This document shows, piece by piece, positions 1 to 62,607 of a DNA stretch of 64,000 bases. Source of the DNA: Candidatus Omnitrophota bacterium (lineage in GTDB: Bacteria > Omnitrophota > Gorgyraeia > Zapsychrales > Fredricksoniimonadaceae); NCBI GenBank assembly GCA_903959815.1, contig CAJBYM010000109.1, positions 2,229 through 66,228 of the forward strand, written 5' to 3'. The position numbers and the translations under genes were made by a program. Below the pieces are notes generated by a model. That model was not told where the DNA came from and made no database searches. It was given only the letters and a program-made list of their open reading frames with translations. The first letter of the stretch is position 1; each line of letters starts with the position of its first letter.

Positions 1-543
1 TTGTGCTGTACGCGTCTTAAGAAAACCTGGCGCACGCTTAAGAAATTTCTTGGCCACAGGATAACCATTATCCTGATACTCGCGCGCCTGTACCAGACAT
101 TCAAGAATATCAGCATCACGCGCGATGAGCGCTTCATGGGTCTTTTGCGTATCATAATCAGCGCGGATATCCACCAGCGCCGTTCGCACCTTAGACGGCA
201 GCGGGGCTACCTGATCTTTGAACACGCGCTTTTCCGCATCTTTGAAATCAATGTAAAAATGACCCATCTTGTGCAAATCATTGATACGCGCTTCATGGAT
301 ATCATTGAACAAGGTCATGGCGAGCACACGATAAGGATCAGCCCCTTCTTCATGGGCCATGTAAAAACCAATGACCGCGCAGCGGAAACAATGGTCGGCC
401 ACACTCTCCGGATTCTCGATCCCAGCCACCCACCAGCCGCTACGCTTGACGCGTTTCAGCAAGCCAGCCTCGGCAAAGAAATCAAGTGCCGCGTTAAAGT
501 TAGCGCCCTTGGGGCTTGTGTTCTTTTTGTTTTTTAATTTCAT
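1..543 (-). CDS. HD-domain phosphohydrolase (YfbR-like); the 3' end is truncated by the window edge
   Basis: Reverse translation from ATG at 543..541 gives MKLKNKKNTSPKGANFNAALDFFAEAGLLKRVKRSGWWVAGIENPESVADHCFRCAVIGFY... The frame stays open to position 1. GWW..G..PESVADH is a typical HD motif. The plus ORF 1..537 (TTG start, low complexity) is judged spurious. Confidence 0.6.
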   Translation of the reverse strand, partial: MKLKNKKNTSPKGANFNAALDFFAEAGLLKRVKRSGWWVAGIENPESVADHCFRCAVIGFYMAHEEGADPYRVLAMTLFNDIHEARINDLHKMGHFYIDFKDAEKRVFKDQVAPLPSKVRTALVDIRADYDTQKTHEALIARDADILECLVQAREYQDNGYPVAKKFLKRAPGFLKTRTAQ

Positions 544-33985: not shown

Positions 33986-34010
33986 AAAAAGGGGCCAGAC
34001 GGCCCCTTTT
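33986..34010. terminator. Terminator hairpin after the porin gene
   Basis: AAAAA-GGGGCC-agac-GGCCCC-TTTT. Confidence 0.55.
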
Positions 34011-39742: not shown

Positions 39743-40570
39743 CTAAAAAGACACCTTAACGATTTCGTTGGGAGCATGCTTCACCGTACGCGCATATCCC
39801 ACAAGCGGTTTGCCAAACGCCATCACGTAACCCATAACATGATCTTGCGGGATCCCAAGACTGATCTTAAGCTCCGGCAAAACGACATTGATCAACCATT
39901 TTGCCAAACCAGTCCAAACCGTTCCCACACCCAGGCTTTGGGCAAAGAGCTCGAAGTACGCGAGCGCGATCAAACAGTCCGGCTCAGGTGCCGGGCAATT
40001 CTTGGGAGCAGATGCGATTACAAGATGAGGAGCCCCACGAAAAATAATGTCCACCTTGGCTGTTTCCCAAAGTTTCACATGATCAGCAAAGAATTCCATA
40101 CCCGGCGGCAACTTGCCTTCACGCACACACTGGGCCAAAAGATCCATGGCCTGTGTACGGAACTTATCCATCATCTGACGATTATCAATGACCGTGAAGC
40201 GCACCTGCCGCACATTCTTTCCCGTCGGTGCATAAGAGGCCACGTCCAAAAGCCGCTGTATGAGTGCAGGATCCAGATCTTCTTTCTTATAGCGACGGAC
40301 AGAACGGCGTGCTTTGATCAACCGTTCGATCTTGTCCGCATGCGGAAGTTCCCCGGTCACAGGCAAACATTCGGCCGGATCAACTCCCAGGATCGAGATC
40401 GCCGCCGTCGGACAGATCGCCAGGCAATGCTGGCAACGGATGCATTTGGGGCCATTCTGACGCGCAATGGACGGATGTCCGTCAACCATGTCGATGATAC
40501 TAACTAAACAATCTGCCGCGCACTGGCCACAAGAAATGCAACGTTCCTTATTAACAACGAACTTGATCAT
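39743..40570 (-). CDS. 2x[4Fe-4S] ferredoxin domain fused to a nitroreductase-family domain
   Basis: CISCGQCAADC and CIRCQHCLAICP cluster motifs, then a nitroreductase fold. Confidence 0.8.
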   Translation of the reverse strand: MIKFVVNKERCISCGQCAADCLVSIIDMVDGHPSIARQNGPKCIRCQHCLAICPTAAISILGVDPAECLPVTGELPHADKIERLIKARRSVRRYKKEDLDPALIQRLLDVASYAPTGKNVRQVRFTVIDNRQMMDKFRTQAMDLLAQCVREGKLPPGMEFFADHVKLWETAKVDIIFRGAPHLVIASAPKNCPAPEPDCLIALAYFELFAQSLGVGTVWTGLAKWLINVVLPELKISLGIPQDHVMGYVMAFGKPLVGYARTVKHAPNEIVKVSF

Positions 40571-40579
40571 AGTGCCTCC

Positions 40580-40765
40580 TTAATGCTTCACACCTAACTT
40601 TTCCAGAATGGTCATCATGGGACACCAATTCGTAAATGCCGACTGGAGAAGATTCAGCCCCACAAACGCCGTGAACCATAACCACATCGGGCTAACATAA
40701 TATGCCAACACCAGGCTGAGTAAAATAAAAAGTCCGGCCATACCTCTTAATATCCGCTGGATCAT
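40580..40765 (-). CDS. DUF2892 (YgaP-TM-like) small membrane protein
   Basis: 61 aa, two TM helices, NWCP motif. Confidence 0.6.
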   Translation of the reverse strand: MIQRILRGMAGLFILLSLVLAYYVSPMWLWFTAFVGLNLLQSAFTNWCPMMTILEKLGVKH

Positions 40766-43700
40766 AACGACCTCCCTATTTTTGGTTTCATAACCATATA
40801 ATATATCACCGGCACGGCCGTCCGTGAAAGGATCGTCGATGCCACTTCACCTGCGATCAGCGATAAGGCCAACCCCTGAAAGATAGGATCAAACAAAATA
40901 ACCGACGCGCCAACCACAACCGCGGCGGCCGTAAGGAGCATCGGACGGAAGCGTTTAGCCCCCGCATCGATCACAGCTTCCTCGATCGCCATCCCTTCTT
41001 TCATCCTCAGCTCAATAAAATCCACGAGAATGATCGAGTTGCGTACAACGATCCCGGCACCCGCGATCATGCCAATCATCGAAGTAGCCGTAAAGAATGT
41101 ATTCGTCATCCAGTGCGCGGGCAGAATGCCGATAAGTGTAAGCGGGATCGGTAACATGATGATCCATGGCGTCTTAAACGACTGGAACCATCCCACCACC
41201 AGCGTAAAGATCAATATCAGGACGATCGCAAAAGCGATCCCCAGGTCACGGAAGACTTCATACGTGATCTGCCACTCGCCATCCCACTTCAAAGACCAGC
41301 GCTCATCGGTCTGCGGCTGATCCGTCAATAAAAGATCTGCTTTCTTTTGCATAGCAGGATTGGGCTCAGGCACAGCGATCTTCTCAAAACCAGGATTCAG
41401 ATCAAGCATCGCATAAACCGGGCTGTCCACCTGACCATCCACATCCGCGATCACATAAGAAACACGTTGCAGGTTCTTATGATAGATCGTGTAATCTTTA
41501 TGCCCCGACTCCACCTCGACGAGGTCTTTCAGCGGGATCCGATTGCCAAAACGCGCCAGCACTGTCATTCCCAAAACAGCATCAAGGGTCTGTCGTTTAT
41601 CTTTGGATAAACGCAAGAGGATCTCAACCGGCTCATTCTCACCGGAAAGATGCGCCAGATCCGCCTTCGTTCCGAGTAAAGAATCCGCAACGACCTGAGC
41701 CAGCGCGTTGACCGCAACACCATTTAAAGAAGCCTTTTGCTTGTTGATCTTAAGCCGATATAACTTTTCCTGACGCCCCACATAACTATCAATATCTGTA
41801 ACGCTTGAACTATTTTTAAAAAGAAGCTCAACATCACTCGCCAGCTTGCGCTGCCCCTCAAGCGACGGACCATAGATCTCAACGACCATGGTCGAAAGGA
41901 CCGGAGGTCCCGGCGGAACTTCGGCAACCTGCACATGCCCGCCTAACTTATCCACGATCTGATGGATCTTCGGACGAACAGCTTTAGCAATATCATGGCT
42001 CTGCAGTTTACGATCTTTCTTCCCCACAAGATTGACCTGAAGGTCTGCCTGCCAAGGCTTGGAACGCAAGAAATAATGCCGCACAAGTCCGTTGAAATTA
42101 TACGGCGCACTAGTACCAATATAAGCCGTAATATTACTGACCTCGGGGACATCATGCATCACCGCCGCGATCTCATCAACCACCTTCTTTGTTCCTTCAA
42201 ACGTTGTTCCTTCAGGCATATTCAAAACGACCTGAAATTCATTTTTATTATCAAAAGGCAGCATTTTCATTTTAACAAGCTTAAGCGGTACCATCATCAC
42301 AACCAGGCCCAATGCCCCGATAAGTCCCATGATAAACCACTTACGAACAACGGCGTTATAGATCAGCGGCTGCATATAGGAACGGTACACGCGCGTCAAC
42401 AGATCATCCTTCTCCCCTTCGCCATGCCCTCGTAACTTACCCTCGGCATGCGCCCGCCCCAAGATCCTGTGCGCGGCCCAGGGTGTCGCCACGAACGCAA
42501 CGATCATGGAAAATACCATGGCCATACTCGCCCCGATCGGGATCGGACGCATATAAGGACCCATGAGGCCGCTGACAAATGCCATGGGCAAGATCGCCGC
42601 AATGACCGTAAGTGTCGCCAAAATAAGCGGGCTCTGGATCTCCTGAACAGCCTCAACGATCACATCGATCAAGGCCCTTCCTTTATTTTTGGCCATACGC
42701 AAATGCCGCACGATATTCTCAACACCGACGATCGGATCATCCACAAGAATGCCGATGGAAAATATCAACGCAAAAAGCGTAATGCGGTTAAGTGTAAACC
42801 CCAAGAAATGAAAACCGGCCAGCGTCAACGACAGGGTCATAGGAATAGCAATTGCAACCACACCCGACTCGCGCCAACCGAGCGTAAGCGCCATCAAAAG
42901 CGTCACACCTAAAATAGCCAGTGCCATGTGAAACAAAAGTTCATTTGATTTCTCATCCGCCGTCTCACCATAGTTGCGCGTGACCGCATAAGACACCGCC
43001 GCAGGGATCATGCTTCCTTTAACACCTTCAACCCTTTTAAGGATCCTTTCACAAACATGGGAGGCATTCGCGCCTTTCCTTTTAGAAACAGCCAGCGTCA
43101 CAGCTTCAAAAACACCTTTGGCCCCCGTCTTATCTGCCGGACCAAATTGAAAATTGACCGCAGTCTCATCTTCATCCGGTCCATCAACAACGGTCGCCAC
43201 ATCCTTCAAATAAACTTCACCCCCCTGGCTTACACCCACGACCACATTCTCAAGATCCTCTTTAGAGCGAAAAAAACCGTCGGACTCAACAGAAACAAGC
43301 TCTGGCCGGCTTTGCAAATGCCCTGCAGCTATCTTGACGTTCGAACGCCGGATAAGCTCGCCGACCTCGAGCGTATTTAAGAACCGTTCATTGAGCTTCT
43401 GTTCATCTAAGACAACACGAAACTGCCGCTTGCGTCCGCCTGTGATCTGCGTCTCGGAAACATCCGGAATAGCACTGACAATATTCTGCAGATCTGCCGC
43501 GACCTTGCGCAAACTAACCGCATCCATCGTCGCACTATGAAACGTCAATGTCATAACAGGAACATCGTCGATCGAACGGATCTTGATCAGCGGCTGAGAA
43601 CCTCCCATGGCCAAAAGATCCAAATTCGAATAAACCTTGGTATAAAGTTTGATCAGGCTCTTTTCCACATCCTCGCCAACCTTAAAACGAACCGTAATGA

Positions 43701-43992
43701 TCGCTCCGTCGGCCTGGGTCATGGAATAAACATACTCAACCCCGGGGAGTTCCCACAGTTTTCGCTCACCCACATTAACAATGCGCCGCTCGACTTCCTC
43801 GGCGGTCGCTCCAGGATAGGATACAAAGATATCAAAGACAGGAACCGCGATCTGCGGCTCTTCTTCCCGCGGAAGATTGATGATAGACATCACACCCAGG
43901 AATATAGAGAAACCAATAACAAGAGGCGTCACTTTAGAACGGATAAAAGCACCAACAATCCGCGATATAAGACTTTCCGATCCCATGCTCAT
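40762..43992 (-). CDS. RND efflux pump, AcrB/CzcA superfamily
   Basis: 1076 aa, 12 TM helices and two large periplasmic loops, ACR_tran pattern. Confidence 0.9.
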   Translation of the reverse strand: MSMGSESLISRIVGAFIRSKVTPLVIGFSIFLGVMSIINLPREEEPQIAVPVFDIFVSYPGATAEEVERRIVNVGERKLWELPGVEYVYSMTQADGAIITVRFKVGEDVEKSLIKLYTKVYSNLDLLAMGGSQPLIKIRSIDDVPVMTLTFHSATMDAVSLRKVAADLQNIVSAIPDVSETQITGGRKRQFRVVLDEQKLNERFLNTLEVGELIRRSNVKIAAGHLQSRPELVSVESDGFFRSKEDLENVVVGVSQGGEVYLKDVATVVDGPDEDETAVNFQFGPADKTGAKGVFEAVTLAVSKRKGANASHVCERILKRVEGVKGSMIPAAVSYAVTRNYGETADEKSNELLFHMALAILGVTLLMALTLGWRESGVVAIAIPMTLSLTLAGFHFLGFTLNRITLFALIFSIGILVDDPIVGVENIVRHLRMAKNKGRALIDVIVEAVQEIQSPLILATLTVIAAILPMAFVSGLMGPYMRPIPIGASMAMVFSMIVAFVATPWAAHRILGRAHAEGKLRGHGEGEKDDLLTRVYRSYMQPLIYNAVVRKWFIMGLIGALGLVVMMVPLKLVKMKMLPFDNKNEFQVVLNMPEGTTFEGTKKVVDEIAAVMHDVPEVSNITAYIGTSAPYNFNGLVRHYFLRSKPWQADLQVNLVGKKDRKLQSHDIAKAVRPKIHQIVDKLGGHVQVAEVPPGPPVLSTMVVEIYGPSLEGQRKLASDVELLFKNSSSVTDIDSYVGRQEKLYRLKINKQKASLNGVAVNALAQVVADSLLGTKADLAHLSGENEPVEILLRLSKDKRQTLDAVLGMTVLARFGNRIPLKDLVEVESGHKDYTIYHKNLQRVSYVIADVDGQVDSPVYAMLDLNPGFEKIAVPEPNPAMQKKADLLLTDQPQTDERWSLKWDGEWQITYEVFRDLGIAFAIVLILIFTLVVGWFQSFKTPWIIMLPIPLTLIGILPAHWMTNTFFTATSMIGMIAGAGIVVRNSIILVDFIELRMKEGMAIEEAVIDAGAKRFRPMLLTAAAVVVGASVILFDPIFQGLALSLIAGEVASTILSRTAVPVIYYMVMKPKIGRSL

Positions 43993-45368
43993 AATCCACC
44001 CTCCTGGCCTAAAGCGCTCAAAACCCCTTCATTCAGCTGTCCTGTAAGAAACAGAAGCCTTCCTTGCGAAAGAAAGGCTCCCATTAAAGCTTTTTCATAA
44101 CCTTCAATGGTTTGCAAATACGCCCGACGAGCATCCATAAGATCGGCCACCGATTTACGGCCTTCACTATAAAGAGGCGCTGTGAGCGATACCGCTTCTT
44201 TAGCATCCTCGCTCATGGCTCTAAGCACCGGAAGGTTATCCCGAAATGCATCATAGCGGGCTGTTTCCCCGGCAATGGCACGGGCGACCGTATCTTTCAA
44301 GATTTGAATGTCATGCGCCAGACGTTCTTTCAACGCCAGCGCTTCTTTCACCCGCCCGCTACGCGACGGGTCAAAAAGCGACATCCGCGCTTTAACCCCA
44401 ACAGTAAAGTTACTCCCCCCCGCATCATGGATATCACGACGATTATTGGTCGCATCCCCAAACGCCATCAAACGCGGCAGTGCCGACGCCTTCTCACGCG
44501 ATAATTCAAGATCAGCCGCCTTAACACGCAAGTCCAACGCTTTCAGATCCGGACGCGACACACCCGCTTCACGCACCAAGGACTCCACCTCACGACTGAG
44601 CACTGTCTTTTCCTGTAATATATTCACGAGCTCCCAGGTTGTTCCCATCGGCTCACCCATCAGAATGTTCAACAAGACCATCATGGCTTTCTTCTGACGG
44701 AAGATCTCATTTTTCATGCGCGTCATATCCCCGAACATCACACGCGCCGCATAATAATCAGCCCCTAGGATCATACCTTTATCCTTGAGATCTTTAGCCT
44801 TTTGAAGATCTTCATCTGCACTTTTTTGAACTTCATCCACGATCGTTGCCAAACGCTCCAGAACCAACGCATTCAGATACGCATCCTGTGCGGTCAACAA
44901 AGCTTCCATCCGGGTAAAATCCTCATCTGCTTCGGTCGCCTTCACCTGTTCCCGTGCGGCACGTGTACGATAGATCGTCTGCATGGCATCGATCAAGGGA
45001 AGCTCCACATGAACGCCGCCCGCAAGATCACGATGATGGCGAGGTGTATTCAATCGGTCTACTTCAAAATCTGATGATGCAAAACGTTCCTGCCGAAGTT
45101 TCATACCAAAAACATTCACCGGATCATCAGACTCCTGATAGTCCGCAGAAAGATCGAGCGATGGCCAAAACCCTGCTCTGGCCTGCATTTGACGGGCTAG
45201 CGCGGCCTGAACATCCGTATGCGCCGCTTTTAATTGAGGATAATAATGCAGAACTTTTTCTGAGAATTGTGCAAAAGTCAGGATTGATGCCGCTTCTTGA
45301 GCCTGAACCACCGGCATAAAGAAAAGAATCATTCCGATGATGATATTAAAAGAAAGAGCCTTCTTCAT
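43989..45368 (-). CDS. TolC-family outer membrane efflux protein
   Basis: Signal peptide, two OEP repeats, 459 aa. Confidence 0.85.
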   Translation of the reverse strand: MKKALSFNIIIGMILFFMPVVQAQEAASILTFAQFSEKVLHYYPQLKAAHTDVQAALARQMQARAGFWPSLDLSADYQESDDPVNVFGMKLRQERFASSDFEVDRLNTPRHHRDLAGGVHVELPLIDAMQTIYRTRAAREQVKATEADEDFTRMEALLTAQDAYLNALVLERLATIVDEVQKSADEDLQKAKDLKDKGMILGADYYAARVMFGDMTRMKNEIFRQKKAMMVLLNILMGEPMGTTWELVNILQEKTVLSREVESLVREAGVSRPDLKALDLRVKAADLELSREKASALPRLMAFGDATNNRRDIHDAGGSNFTVGVKARMSLFDPSRSGRVKEALALKERLAHDIQILKDTVARAIAGETARYDAFRDNLPVLRAMSEDAKEAVSLTAPLYSEGRKSVADLMDARRAYLQTIEGYEKALMGAFLSQGRLLFLTGQLNEGVLSALGQEGGL

Positions 45369-45646
45369 CGCGACACCTCCCCTTTAGACAAGACCTTGAT
45401 CAATTCAACAACTTTTGGCGCAAGAACCCGATAACAGGTTTTCACTCCCTCTTTTCTGATCCCCACCACTCCCGCAGCTTTTAAAACACCCAGATGCTGA
45501 GACACCGTCGATTGCGGCAGCTTAAGCGCCTTGACCATCTTATCCACATGACATTCACGGCCCAAAAGGCCCTCGGCCATGCGCAAACGTACGGGATGCG
45601 CCAAAGCTTTCAATACTTCACTTTCCCGGATATAATCCATCGGCAT
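45365..45646 (-). CDS. ArsR/SmtB-family transcriptional regulator
   Basis: LKALAHPVRLRMAEGL winged-helix motif, 93 aa. Confidence 0.85.
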   Translation of the reverse strand: MPMDYIRESEVLKALAHPVRLRMAEGLLGRECHVDKMVKALKLPQSTVSQHLGVLKAAGVVGIRKEGVKTCYRVLAPKVVELIKVLSKGEVSR

Positions 45647-45650
45647 AGAA

Positions 45651-45697
45651 AAACCCCTTTCATCGTATAATTGCGATATTACGATAAAAGGGGTTTT
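45651..45697 (-). promoter_or_regulatory. 47-bp near-perfect palindrome overlapping the arsR Shine-Dalgarno; candidate operator and/or terminator
   Basis: AAACCCCTTTCATCGTATAATTGCGATATTACGATAAAAGGGGTTT. The right arm contains the AAAGGGG Shine-Dalgarno of arsR. Confidence 0.5.
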
Positions 45698-45735
45698 CTG
45701 TCAAGTGCTATCCGTCAACCGGACCGATCGCCGCT

Positions 45736-46275
45736 TTATGCGATCTTGGGCGGTTCAGGAAAATCTACTTCCGTCTCGGCAATGTGATTAAAATAATTCG
45801 TGAAAAGATTAAACGTAACCCAGGCGATCACCTCGATGAGCGCTGCATCCGAATAGCCGGCTGCTTTAAACGCATCAACGACCTTGCCCAACGGACGGCC
45901 TTTTTTCTCGGAGATCTCCACCACAAGCTCCAGGAGCGCATCCATCTTCGGATCTTGGCTTATCCCCTGACGCGCTTCAAGTGTCTCTTCATCCGTAAGA
46001 CCTGACATCTTGCCGATAACCGTATGAGCTGCCACACAATAATCACACGTGTTATTCTGACCAACAGCCAACGCGATCGCTTCGATCTCCTTGGGCGTTA
46101 GTACACCTTTCTTCAAACCAAAGTTATACGCCAAGAGCGCATGCAACGTACTCGGCGAATGCGCCATGGTCGCATAGATATTAGGGATCTTCCCCATCTT
46201 GGCCTGGATGCCTTCGAGGACTTTTTTCTGCTCTTCATTGGCAGCATCCAACTTAACGGGTTCAATAACTGGCAT
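45736..46275 (-). CDS. AhpD-like/carboxymuconolactone decarboxylase family protein
   Basis: CDYCVAAH motif. Start set at ATG 46275, which has an AAGGA Shine-Dalgarno. Confidence 0.75.
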   Translation of the reverse strand: MPVIEPVKLDAANEEQKKVLEGIQAKMGKIPNIYATMAHSPSTLHALLAYNFGLKKGVLTPKEIEAIALAVGQNNTCDYCVAAHTVIGKMSGLTDEETLEARQGISQDPKMDALLELVVEISEKKGRPLGKVVDAFKAAGYSDAALIEVIAWVTFNLFTNYFNHIAETEVDFPEPPKIA

Positions 46276-46490
46276 ACAACACATCCTTTCTAAACTTTTA
46301 ATAATCAAAAAATAATATCGTATTATTTTCTTTTTCCTCTATTAATGGATATTATCTTATCATTCTAAAAAATAGAAGCTAAATAAATTTTTGCGAATAA
46401 TAAATACAAATTCTTTGAAAGTATTTGCGGTCATCTACGACCAAAATAAACAATCCGATAAATATTATTAATTCATAAGAGAAAAATCCT

Positions 46491-49118
46491 ATGCCCATGA
46501 ATAAAATACAAAAAAGAAACGGCGAAATCGTTGATTTCTTGCCAGAACGTATCGCCGATGCCATCCGCAAAGCCACTGAAGCCACGCGCCAAAACAACCC
46601 GTCACTTAACCTGGATACAGCTTTCATCCCTGCGATCACCGATGATATCATTGGTGAACTGAAGAAACATTATGCCGCATCCGAACGCATCCCCAACATT
46701 GAGCATATCCAGGATATCGTTGAACAAAAACTGGTCGAAAACGGGCACTTCGAGATCGCAAGGAACTACATCCTTTACAGATCCCATCACGCCCAGCTGC
46801 GCATCGAAGCCAGACTTGAACAGCTAAAGAAGATCGACAATAATCTCCTTAAAGTCCAGAAACGTAATAAGAAGACTGAAGTGTTTAAAGTCGACAAACT
46901 CCGCAAGACATTCGCCCTCGCCGCCAAAGGATATGAAAAAGAATGCCCGTTTGAACAGCTCTACGAACGCCTGAAACTTACGATCAATGACAATATCCTA
47001 ACGACCCAGATCAACAAGAACATGCGCAAGGTCGCGCTCGATCTGGTCACAGTCAAGAATATCTCGTGGCAAAATATTGCCGGCCGGCTCTATCTGATGG
47101 ACCTTTACAAACAAGCCTGCCGCAACCGCGTTATGGAACCTGCAAAGATCTACGCGGCTGAGGAATTCAAAAAACTTTTTGACACCTATATTAAAGAAGG
47201 CAAGTATTCACAGGATTTCTACACCTACTATACCGCAGAGGACATCCTCAAAGCCGGCGCCGCGATCGATAAAGAACGCGACTTCTCCTATATCTATTCC
47301 ACAGTTCTGGCCTTTGACCGGCGGTATCTGCTGAATCCTAATAAATATGTGCGCGAACTGCCCCAGGAAATGTACATGGCGATCGCCTTGTTCCTGGCCA
47401 TCCCTGAACCTCAGGAAAAACGCCTGGCTATCGCGCTGAGCATTTACGAACTTACCTCGACCCAACAATTATCCCTTCCCACACCAACGCTCTTAAACGC
47501 CCGGACCAATTTTCATCAGCTCTCCAGTTGTTTCAAACTCAATGTCAACGATGACCTGCGCGCCATCTATCATGCGCTGGAAAACATGGCCCAGATCTCC
47601 AAATTTGGCGGTGGCGTCGGTGCTTATCTGGGGCACATCCGTTCACGCGGAGCTTATATCCGTGAAATGAAAGGCGCGTCCGGTGGCGTGATCCCCTGGG
47701 TGCGGCTGATCAACAACACCGCCAGTGCCGTCAACCAGCTCGGTTCACGGCTTGGAGCCATCTCACCCACACTTGACATCTGGCACCGCGACATTCTGGA
47801 CTTTCTCAACCTGCAGACCGAAACGGGCGACATCCGATCCAAAGCATTTGATATCTTCCCGGCGATCTCGATCCCGGATTTGTTCATGCGCCGGGTAGAA
47901 GCCGGAGAGAACTGGACCCTTTTCGATCCTCATGAAGTGCATCAAAAGAAAGGCCGGCGGATCGAGGATCATTTTGGGAAAGATTTTGACACCTTCTATA
48001 AAGAATGTGAACAAGACCCGACTCTAGAGTTCAAAAATCCGATCAACGCCAAAGAACTCATGAAACGGTTCCTCAAGACAGCTGTTGAAACAGGCATGCC
48101 CTATGTCTTTTTTCGTGATACCGTCAATCGCTTAAACCCCAACCGTCATGCAGGCAACATCTACTCCACACAGCTATGCACCGAAATATGCCAGAACACA
48201 GCTGACGCTGTGTTCAATGGGGAAACACTTGAGAATGGAAATGTCAATCTATCCTACACGCCCGGAGATACTGTTGTCTGCAACCTCGCCTCGATCAACG
48301 TGGCGAAGGTCAACACACCCGAACAGATCCGGCGTGTGATGCCCATTGCGCTGCGCGTTCTGGACAATGTCATCACCCTGAATTTTTATCCCATTAAAGA
48401 AAGCGAGATCACGGCCAAGAAATACCGCAGCATCGGGCTCGGGTTCATGGGGCTCGCCGAATACCTAGCCTGCTCAGGACTCTCGTATGATTCCGCAGAA
48501 GCCCGTGCTCATGTGAACACACTCTTCGAACAATACGCCTACGCGACACTCTACGGCTCATGTGAACTGGCCAAAGAACGCGGCGCCTATGAACTTTTTG
48601 AAGGCAGTGACTGGTCCAAGGGACTGCTCTTCGGACGGGACACGTCATGGTATAAGGCCAACAGTAAAATGGCGGATCAGTGGGCCTCTCTGATCAAAGA
48701 TATCCAAAAGAATGGCGTACGTTTTGCTTATCACCTAGCACCGGCCCCCAACACCTCAACATCTGGCGTCGTTGGAACAACAGCCGGGCTACTGCCGATC
48801 TACAAGAAGTTCTTTGTAGAAACAAATGCACTGGCCCCGATCGTAACCGTCGCGCCCAACCTTTCACCGAAGAATTTCTGGCATTATAAAGAATACGTCC
48901 ACATGGACATGAACGATGTGATCGACATGATCGCAACAATATACCCGTGGGTTGACCAATCCATCTCCTTCGAGTGGCTCATCAACCCGGCGAACACATC
49001 TCCGGCAGAACTTTATGGCTATTACATGAAAGCGTGGAGATCTGGAATTAAAACAGTCTACTACGTGCGCAGCATGAGCGGCGAACTGAAAGAAACCTGT
49101 GTCAGCTGCAGCGGCTGA
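46491..49118 (+). CDS. nrdA: Class I ribonucleotide reductase alpha subunit
   Basis: N-terminal ATP-cone, active-site QLCTEICQ, C-terminal CVSCSG redox tail. Confidence 0.9.
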   Translation: MPMNKIQKRNGEIVDFLPERIADAIRKATEATRQNNPSLNLDTAFIPAITDDIIGELKKHYAASERIPNIEHIQDIVEQKLVENGHFEIARNYILYRSHHAQLRIEARLEQLKKIDNNLLKVQKRNKKTEVFKVDKLRKTFALAAKGYEKECPFEQLYERLKLTINDNILTTQINKNMRKVALDLVTVKNISWQNIAGRLYLMDLYKQACRNRVMEPAKIYAAEEFKKLFDTYIKEGKYSQDFYTYYTAEDILKAGAAIDKERDFSYIYSTVLAFDRRYLLNPNKYVRELPQEMYMAIALFLAIPEPQEKRLAIALSIYELTSTQQLSLPTPTLLNARTNFHQLSSCFKLNVNDDLRAIYHALENMAQISKFGGGVGAYLGHIRSRGAYIREMKGASGGVIPWVRLINNTASAVNQLGSRLGAISPTLDIWHRDILDFLNLQTETGDIRSKAFDIFPAISIPDLFMRRVEAGENWTLFDPHEVHQKKGRRIEDHFGKDFDTFYKECEQDPTLEFKNPINAKELMKRFLKTAVETGMPYVFFRDTVNRLNPNRHAGNIYSTQLCTEICQNTADAVFNGETLENGNVNLSYTPGDTVVCNLASINVAKVNTPEQIRRVMPIALRVLDNVITLNFYPIKESEITAKKYRSIGLGFMGLAEYLACSGLSYDSAEARAHVNTLFEQYAYATLYGSCELAKERGAYELFEGSDWSKGLLFGRDTSWYKANSKMADQWASLIKDIQKNGVRFAYHLAPAPNTSTSGVVGTTAGLLPIYKKFFVETNALAPIVTVAPNLSPKNFWHYKEYVHMDMNDVIDMIATIYPWVDQSISFEWLINPANTSPAELYGYYMKAWRSGIKTVYYVRSMSGELKETCVSCSG

Positions 49119-62514: not shown

Positions 62515-62607
62515 CAACAAGCCCCACCCACTAGCTTCTTAACTAACTTCCGGGGCTTCTTTCTATTTAAAATTCTACTCCTTTAGCCATGGCTGTCAAC
62601 ATCAATC

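Follow-up and report, generated by a model that had tools for sequence, protein, structure and literature searches.

Autoregulated operator-promoters of the ArsR/SmtB type, among them the SmtB 12-2-12 repeat at smtA/smtB, the CzrA operator czrO, and that of R773 ArsR, are occupied by dimeric repressors, with ligand binding or thiol modification leading to de-repression. The locus described here lies in a 64-kb stretch of DNA from a Candidatus Omnitrophota bacterium (the window, i.e., the whole stretch that was analysed) and resembles these systems in that a small winged-helix ArsR-type regulator is encoded beside its putative targets, with an imperfect repeat overlapping the regulator's own promoter. 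It differs from them in (i) the sequence and spacing of the half-sites, here ATCGTA-N12-TACGAT with an optional inner N4 box, (ii) the absence of canonical metal sites, in place of which invariant Cys residues are found at C32 and C71, (iii) the neighbouring genes, which across the family belong to thiol and sulfur-redox metabolism and not to metal handling, and (iv) the extension of the repeat to 48 bp in one clade. By its sequence, the core of this element is a member of this familiar class. Overall, the switch is of a common type, and what is unusual about it is a pair of outer arms that most likely fold as an RNA hairpin.

Two further systems bear comparison. MsvR of methanogens is an archaeal, redox-sensitive protein of ~250 aa that combines an ArsR-type DNA-binding domain with a V4R domain. 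The promoters on which it acts are of the TATA/BRE type, and at its own promoter it binds TTCGTA-N4-TACGAA, a partial inverted repeat, with DNA binding that is cysteine dependent and redox sensitive (PMC3729527). The half-site TCGTA/TACGA is common to MsvR and to the operator family detailed below, with several family loci containing an ATCGTA-N4-TACGAT inner box that recalls the MsvR site. The protein encoded in the window nonetheless falls outside the MsvR family, being a bacterial protein of 93 aa composed of the winged-helix domain only, without V4R, and matching the NCBIfam MsvR model weakly (residues 10-65, E 4e-6), with a score of 26.6 bits where the cut-off is 220. The thiol/persulfide sensors BigR and SqrR share with it the minimal ArsR fold, a pair of Cys residues (reactive in BigR and SqrR), and sulfur-redox gene neighbours (rhodanese / CoA-disulfide-reductase / sulfurtransferase). 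It is not a member of that group either, scoring 55.4 bits against the BigR model (cut-off 155); when the two are aligned pairwise, F occupies the places of both C32 and C71 in BigR, whose only visible Cys (LVCTL) aligns with A23 of the query. The BigR/SqrR operator also differs from the one found here. A literature search for the operator sequence in connection with ArsR returned nothing relevant, and this subfamily, with its operator sequence and apparently redox-related neighbours, was not encountered in the literature searched.

Four genes of the window are encoded on the minus strand in the order CMD/AhpD-like gene (45736-46275), arsR (45365-45646), TolC-like OEP gene (43989-45368), and RND pump gene (40762-43992), the latter two being the presumed regulated genes. 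ATGA stop/start overlaps link arsR to OEP and OEP to RND, and the palindrome falls within the 89 nt that separate the end of the CMD coding sequence from the arsR start codon. The first ATG (45646-45644, minus strand) is the better candidate for the arsR start, as the related locus L175 has a single ATG at an equal distance from GGGG; most homologues begin two residues ahead of 'DY'. The same CMD-arsR-OEP-RND order is present in L081, L082, and L169-172, and an identical copy of the locus is contained in the assemblies ERZ27313537, ERZ18659389, and ERR4221774. No gene for a membrane-fusion (HlyD-type) adaptor was found in or adjoining the operon (window 39743-45646, minus strand), and in L084 OEP is likewise followed directly by RND with no adaptor. 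On the 3' side of RND, there is a ferredoxin- and nitroreductase-like gene (40570-39743), followed by an RNase II/R-like gene.

An earlier note on this DNA had reported a near-perfect palindrome with one mismatch ahead of arsR. Both a repeat finder and reading of the sequence agree, yielding 18-nt arms at 45650-45667 and 45680-45697 that pair at 17 of 18 positions (94%) across a 12-nt spacing; with the flanking G/C, pairing extends to 45648/45649-45698. The sole mismatch on the plus strand, C45661 against A45686, becomes a U.G wobble when the minus strand, which carries the genes, is read. No other inverted repeat in the 64-kb window combines 18-nt arms, at most one mismatch, and a spacer of 0-20 nt, and 30 block shuffles of the window generated none of the palindrome's size. 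The arm sequence was not found in the window as a dispersed repeat, and ATCGTA-N12-TACGAT occurs there once, against an expectation of 0.08. As sense RNA, the 121 nt from 45620 to 45740 fold with -40.3 kcal/mol (z = -3.8), and the isolated hairpin with -25.7 kcal/mol and a 19-bp stem. The arsR Shine-Dalgarno sequence GAAAGGGG (45661-45654, minus strand) is located within the 3' arm, as had been noted before, 7 nt ahead of the ATG. The palindrome is a real, non-random, and conserved element. Our main reading, to which we would attach a probability of roughly 60%, is that these 48 bp are a composite, in which a DNA promoter/operator core has been joined to a putative RNA hairpin through arms present in one clade only.

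With respect to the core, a promoter scan of the minus strand identified a perfect -35 hexamer, TTGACA (45699-45704), and a -10 hexamer, TAATAT (45676-45681), separated by a 17-nt spacer in the manner of sigma-70-type promoters; the -10 lies inside the left operator half-site. The 24-bp operator core ATCGTA-N12-TACGAT (45662-45685; sense ATCGTAATATCGCAATTATACGAT) is invariant in the close clade and fits the family-wide consensus TATATCGTATTAT-N3-GATAATACGATA in both sequence and spacing. From the geometry of the promoter hexamers alone, transcription of arsR is predicted to start at 45667-45672 (minus strand), ~5-9 nt past the -10, a zone that falls within the loop of the hairpin and the first part of its 3' arm. 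The earlier note had also pointed to a TATAAT core. That motif is present (45666-45671); however, it is on the plus strand, opposite arsR, where it constitutes the mirror half of the operator, and the predicted -10 is instead TAATAT. A plus-strand promoter using this TATAAT was considered and set aside, the promoter scan having returned no -35 match for it. Where the window was scanned, just one further near-consensus match to a sigma-70-type promoter came up, at 62572-62599 (minus strand; TTGACA-16-TAGAAT, 11/12).

For comparison, relatives were collected from 80 genome loci and 80 metagenome loci, supplemented with the closest ones by exact-protein look-up. Of 87 regions upstream of homologous arsR genes, 61 have TTGAC at 16-18 nt from TAnnAT, with most of these 61 displaying ATCG before the -10, then N3-5, (G)ATAWWACGAT(A), and then a Shine-Dalgarno sequence. 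Within the family, the -10 reads TAWTAT and is ~33-38 nt from the ATG. The complete layout TTGACA-N13-ATCGTAWTAT-N4-ATAWWACGAT-SD precedes arsR homologues at well over half of the ~87 loci, from Omnitrophota, Auribacterota, Lentisphaerae/Victivallales, Kiritimatiellia, Planctomycetes-labelled MAGs, Spirochaetes, Endomicrobiales, and Firmicutes. Across 39 non-redundant sites outside the clade of the window, the consensus is cTTGACaaa-N8-TaTATCGTATTATt..gATAatACGATa. The recognition helix PQSTVSQHL is itself invariant (alignment A1). In the close clade, the entire stretch from the -35 to the ATG is kept, while the DNA that links the end of the CMD gene to the -35 has freely diverged.

An inverted repeat that overlaps the regulator's own promoter (both -10 and +1) and is conserved together with the regulator is what classically marks an autoregulatory operator. 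The two-fold symmetric ArsR-family operator proposed earlier is supported by these data, the central repeat ATCGTA-N12-TACGAT being found at the same place before homologous arsR genes from several phyla. We thus consider it very probable from this pattern that the core is the arsR promoter together with the operator to which the regulator binds. The left half-site would span the -10 and the right half-site ~+1 to +12, such that a repressor dimer seated on the core would exclude RNA polymerase and keep the arsR, TolC-like, and RND genes repressed.

At many loci, a second copy of the repeat is present just 3' of arsR and ahead of the next gene, as would be expected if the repeat is the binding site of the regulator. 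These copies occur 15-40 nt after the arsR stop codon, behind TAA-TTTTTT and without a good -35 (e.g., L094:970-993, L101:2786-2809, L002:3181-3204, L006:3283-3306, L098:2787-2810, L037:1223-1246, and L126:2646-2669), and are found ahead of thioredoxin, C_GCAxxG_C_C, or CoADR-type genes. They could serve as a second, weaker promoter or as a roadblock site within the operon.

Elsewhere in the window, ATATCGTATTAT at 46315-46326 (plus strand) exactly reproduces the left half of the family's consensus operator. This half-site is situated within a 21-nt palindrome, AAAATAATA-TCG-TATTATTTT (46308-46328), where the CMD gene and a ribonucleotide-reductase gene (46491, plus strand) diverge, and a weak plus-strand promoter match (TTAATA-17-TATTAT) overlaps this palindrome. 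As a candidate second operator upstream of the CMD gene, ATATCGTATTAT was rejected, since it is a half-site that lacks the right half and is absent from L081 and L082; it may be a chance occurrence in AT-rich DNA.

The regulator is a 93-aa minimal winged-helix protein of the ArsR/SmtB family, recognised by the Pfam HTH_5 model (PF01022; E 7e-9) and by NCBIfam NF033788 (74 bits; cut-off 55), with the minimal ArsR proteins Rv0081 and PagR as its closest solved structures. It is part of a subfamily of 86-93-aa ArsR proteins in which C32, C71, H17, and H51 are invariant (alignment A1). C32 is found in the context ECHV/ECNV at the start of alpha3, and C71 in KTCY on the wing strand. Against the BigR, PagR, CmtR, TsoR, and MsvR models the protein scores far below the cut-offs, and it fits no NCBIfam equivalog. 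As to metal or arsenic sensing, alpha3 has no CxC motif (ECHV being found there), the canonical alpha5 site is likewise absent, a C-terminal His/Asp cluster is lacking, and scores against metal-sensor models are low (CmtR, 37.8 against a cut-off of 150; PRK10141, 20 against 97).

The Pfam family of the first downstream gene was surveyed at 88 family loci and was thioredoxin at 18, pyridine-nucleotide disulfide reductase with rhodanese domains at 14-15, MMPL/RND at 12, C_GCAxxG_C_C at 10, OEP at 7, AhpC at 4, and DsrE and TusA at 3 each. Taken with the AhpD-like neighbour in the window, these genes favour a thiol, oxidant, or sulfane-sulfur signal over a metal. Judging by such neighbours, the regulator probably responds to a signal of this kind and not to metal, and metals, the ligands envisaged for the binding assays of the earlier note, are probably the wrong choice, given the unmatched canonical metal-site models, the two invariant Cys residues, and the thiol/sulfur-redox gene neighbourhood. 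Release of the repressor would then follow from modification of C32/C71, the signal being thiol-reactive, redox, or sulfane sulfur, as suggested by the genes beside the family's regulators.

The outer arms have a much narrower distribution than the core. On the minus strand, the 5' outer arm (45686-45698; sense GAAAACCCCTTTT) occupies the spacer between the -35 and the -10 and is clade specific; the 3' outer arm (45649-45661; sense GAAAGGGGTTTTT) holds the Shine-Dalgarno sequence and a run of five U residues (45653-45649). The arm pair AAAACCCCTTTT / GAAAGGGGTTTT was found only in the closest clade, in which ArsR proteins are at least 81% identical and the CMD-arsR-OEP-RND order is kept. Among 88 non-redundant sites, the 12-nt flanks of the core show a mean complementarity of 4.0/12, which does not set them apart from cross-locus controls (mean 3.5/12, with 0.3% reaching 10 or more); the exceptions are the clade of the window (8-12 of 12) and L111/L030 (8 of 12). 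An energy-based test of the flanks gave the same picture as the pair counts. In L084, L177, and L089, where the regulators are 69-76% identical, the core is present without complementary flanks. A metagenome scan for closer relatives yielded none above 74% protein identity. The proteins P0020 and P0028 are 75-76% identical; the locus of P0028 (L177) has the core without outer arms, and that of P0020 (L176) has just 28 nt upstream of the gene and was left out of the arm comparison.

Within the clade, substitutions in the arms tend to preserve pairing. In L083, where the arms read AAGAUCCC/GGGAUCUU and not AAAACCCC/GGGGUUUU, both partners have changed at two pairs (A-U to G-C; C-G to U-A), and in L175, with the arms CCCCUUCU/AGAAGGGG, they have changed at one pair (U-A to C-G) along with a change from U.G to U-A, for a total of three compensatory swaps in the clade. 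Further changes that preserve pairing are G.U to G-C and A-U to G.U, and the wobbles in the arms are G.U on the sense strand only. Pairing is interrupted by a bulged A (L081, L087, and L088) and by a single U x U mismatch (L175). These counts come from 4 distinct outer-arm haplotypes in ~7 sequences and were made on a manual structural alignment, because in the MAFFT alignment (A4) the 1-nt indel that L081-type sequences carry falls in the wrong place. Compensatory changes at mirror positions, together with tolerated wobbles, fit nucleic-acid pairing better than protein contacts. The outer arms are a lineage-specific addition that most likely pairs as RNA, a reading with moderate support from covariation.

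An independent palindrome with 19-nt arms, CCTTGTTATATCGTATTAT / ATAATGCGATATAACAAGG, surrounds the same operator at L111:2446-2487 and is also present in L030 (Candidatus Aadella). Its 3' arm runs into the Shine-Dalgarno sequence AAGGAGG, and it lies 88 nt behind a same-strand ORF and has no U-run. A close upstream gene on the same strand was considered as a predictor of arm extension and was discarded, several loci with a nearby ORF lacking any extension, although the comparison is a weak one, its ORFs being mechanically called.

Were all 48 bp to act as a DNA-only operator, the arms would contact a second pair of repressor dimers. Two dimers per operator are indeed the mode of binding of certain ArsR/SmtB proteins, the outer arms share the centre of symmetry of the core, and extra ATCGT/ACGAT boxes at steps of ~8 nt are present in some family loci. 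Nevertheless, double substitutions at mirror positions and single changes of the G.U type are unexpected for half-sites that identical protein subunits read independently, the outer arms contain no ATCGT-like boxes, and regulators that are 69-76% identical and have the same recognition helix are found at loci without complementary flanks. We therefore regard this explanation as unlikely, though it is the best placed of those that compete with the composite reading.

Somewhat less likely still is that the arms are functionless, their complementarity being the by-product of a C/T-rich spacer facing a purine-rich Shine-Dalgarno sequence in a young clade. With ~7 sequences, 4 haplotypes, and a short region to compare, conservation could in part reflect the promoter and the Shine-Dalgarno sequence. 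Against this stand the 8-12 of 12 pairs in register within the clade, compared to the control mean of 3.5, the three substitutions that are each matched at the exact mirror position, and the free variation of promoter spacers elsewhere in the family.

Under the composite reading, the arms GAAAACCCCUUUU and GAAAGGGGUUUUU would extend the operator palindrome to form a hairpin that has G/C at its base and is accompanied by a run of U residues. A hairpin of 19-21 bp is predicted in all seven clade variants (-24 to -32 kcal/mol); it begins 38 nt after the CMD stop codon, with an A-run before its CCCC/GGGG base and, in most variants, 5-6 U residues after it. In its CCCC/GGGG-based stem, the AAAA before and UUUUU after it, and the same-strand gene upstream, it is similar to intrinsic terminators; unlike these, its 19-21-bp stem has an AU-rich middle and its loop holds the predicted -10 and the operator. 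The U-run is degraded in L083 (UCUUCU), and stem and loop alike are atypical for a terminator. Between this degraded run and the L111 hairpin, which has none, classical termination is not uniformly supported. The hairpin was not called by a terminator scan, since its loop and stem exceed the limits of the scan, and no conserved separate terminator was found between the CMD stop codon and the -35. Folding energies of the sense and antisense strands, compared as a test of strand, were too similar to decide.

A textbook intrinsic terminator of the bidirectional type, AAAAGGGGCC-gtct-GGCCCCTTTT, is found at window 33987-34010 (minus strand) after the gene at 35366-34035; its A-tract, GC-stem, and U-tract indicate that this organism uses hairpin-plus-U-run terminators.

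The earlier suggestion of a terminator-like hairpin after the AhpD-like gene is thus plausible, with the outer arms co-varying in close relatives. As the 5' arm is the spacer between the -35 and the -10, the hairpin could form only on RNA entering from the CMD gene. On the CMD transcript it would act as an intrinsic terminator or 3' hairpin, and on read-through RNA it would bury the Shine-Dalgarno sequence of arsR. The net effect would be insulation, i.e., expression of the pump solely from the repressor-controlled promoter. For this specific role of the outer arms, as an RNA terminator or insulator, we see about even odds.

A different role for the hairpin was implied in the earlier note, which held that arsR is translationally controlled by masking of its ribosome-binding site. 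In such a scheme, the hairpin would belong to the arsR leader and regulated masking would be added to transcriptional control, comparable to a riboswitch platform or a fourU thermometer. The Shine-Dalgarno sequence is indeed in the 3' arm of a stable, clade-conserved hairpin, and the pairing of UUUU with a purine-rich Shine-Dalgarno sequence resembles that of fourU elements. However, the conserved TTGACA-17-TAATAT promoter places the predicted start inside the loop; arsR's own mRNA would accordingly lack the 5' arm, and the hairpin would be unable to form there. By this promoter geometry, the 5' UTR of the regulated mRNA would not include both arms, and masking would be restricted to read-through RNA, where it amounts to insulation. 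In addition, a hairpin of -25 kcal/mol is too stable for thermal melting, the wider family keeps promoter and operator without the outer arms, and a search of Rfam 15 over 44000-47500 with E-values up to 1 gave no matches, so that no Rfam family is found around the site. Regulated masking in an arsR leader is consequently improbable, and the earlier claim is not upheld. The size and symmetry of the palindrome might also suggest a dispersed repeat or a mobile-element end (REP- or MITE-like), an origin that is highly improbable given its single copy in 64 kb and its fixed position relative to arsR in all relatives.

Carried to its full extent, the composite reading would have the same 48 bp read twice, (i) as DNA, by serving as the promoter/operator of a thiol/redox-sensing ArsR-type repressor, a bacterial counterpart of MsvR in anaerobic phyla, and (ii) as RNA, by folding into a terminator/anti-Shine-Dalgarno hairpin. 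We advance this fuller version tentatively. If it is correct, a promoter spacer is under selection for base pairing, and an operator has come to be enclosed in the stem of a terminator.

The clade-specific extension would pack a terminator hairpin, a promoter, and an operator into ~50 bp, between same-strand genes that are 89 nt apart. A hairpin folded around a promoter/operator would be an unusual packing solution, for which the covariation provides support. While this introduces no new regulatory principle, the design is compact and could be reused as an insulator. Ultimately, comparison alone defines the operator and promoter layout of an uncharacterised two-cysteine ArsR subfamily that is widespread in uncultured anaerobes, including Omnitrophota, other PVC-group lineages, Spirochaetes, and Firmicutes, and that is linked to thioredoxin, CoA-disulfide-reductase-rhodanese, and RND-efflux genes. 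This provides a testable binding site, along with candidate target genes, for organisms that resist cultivation.
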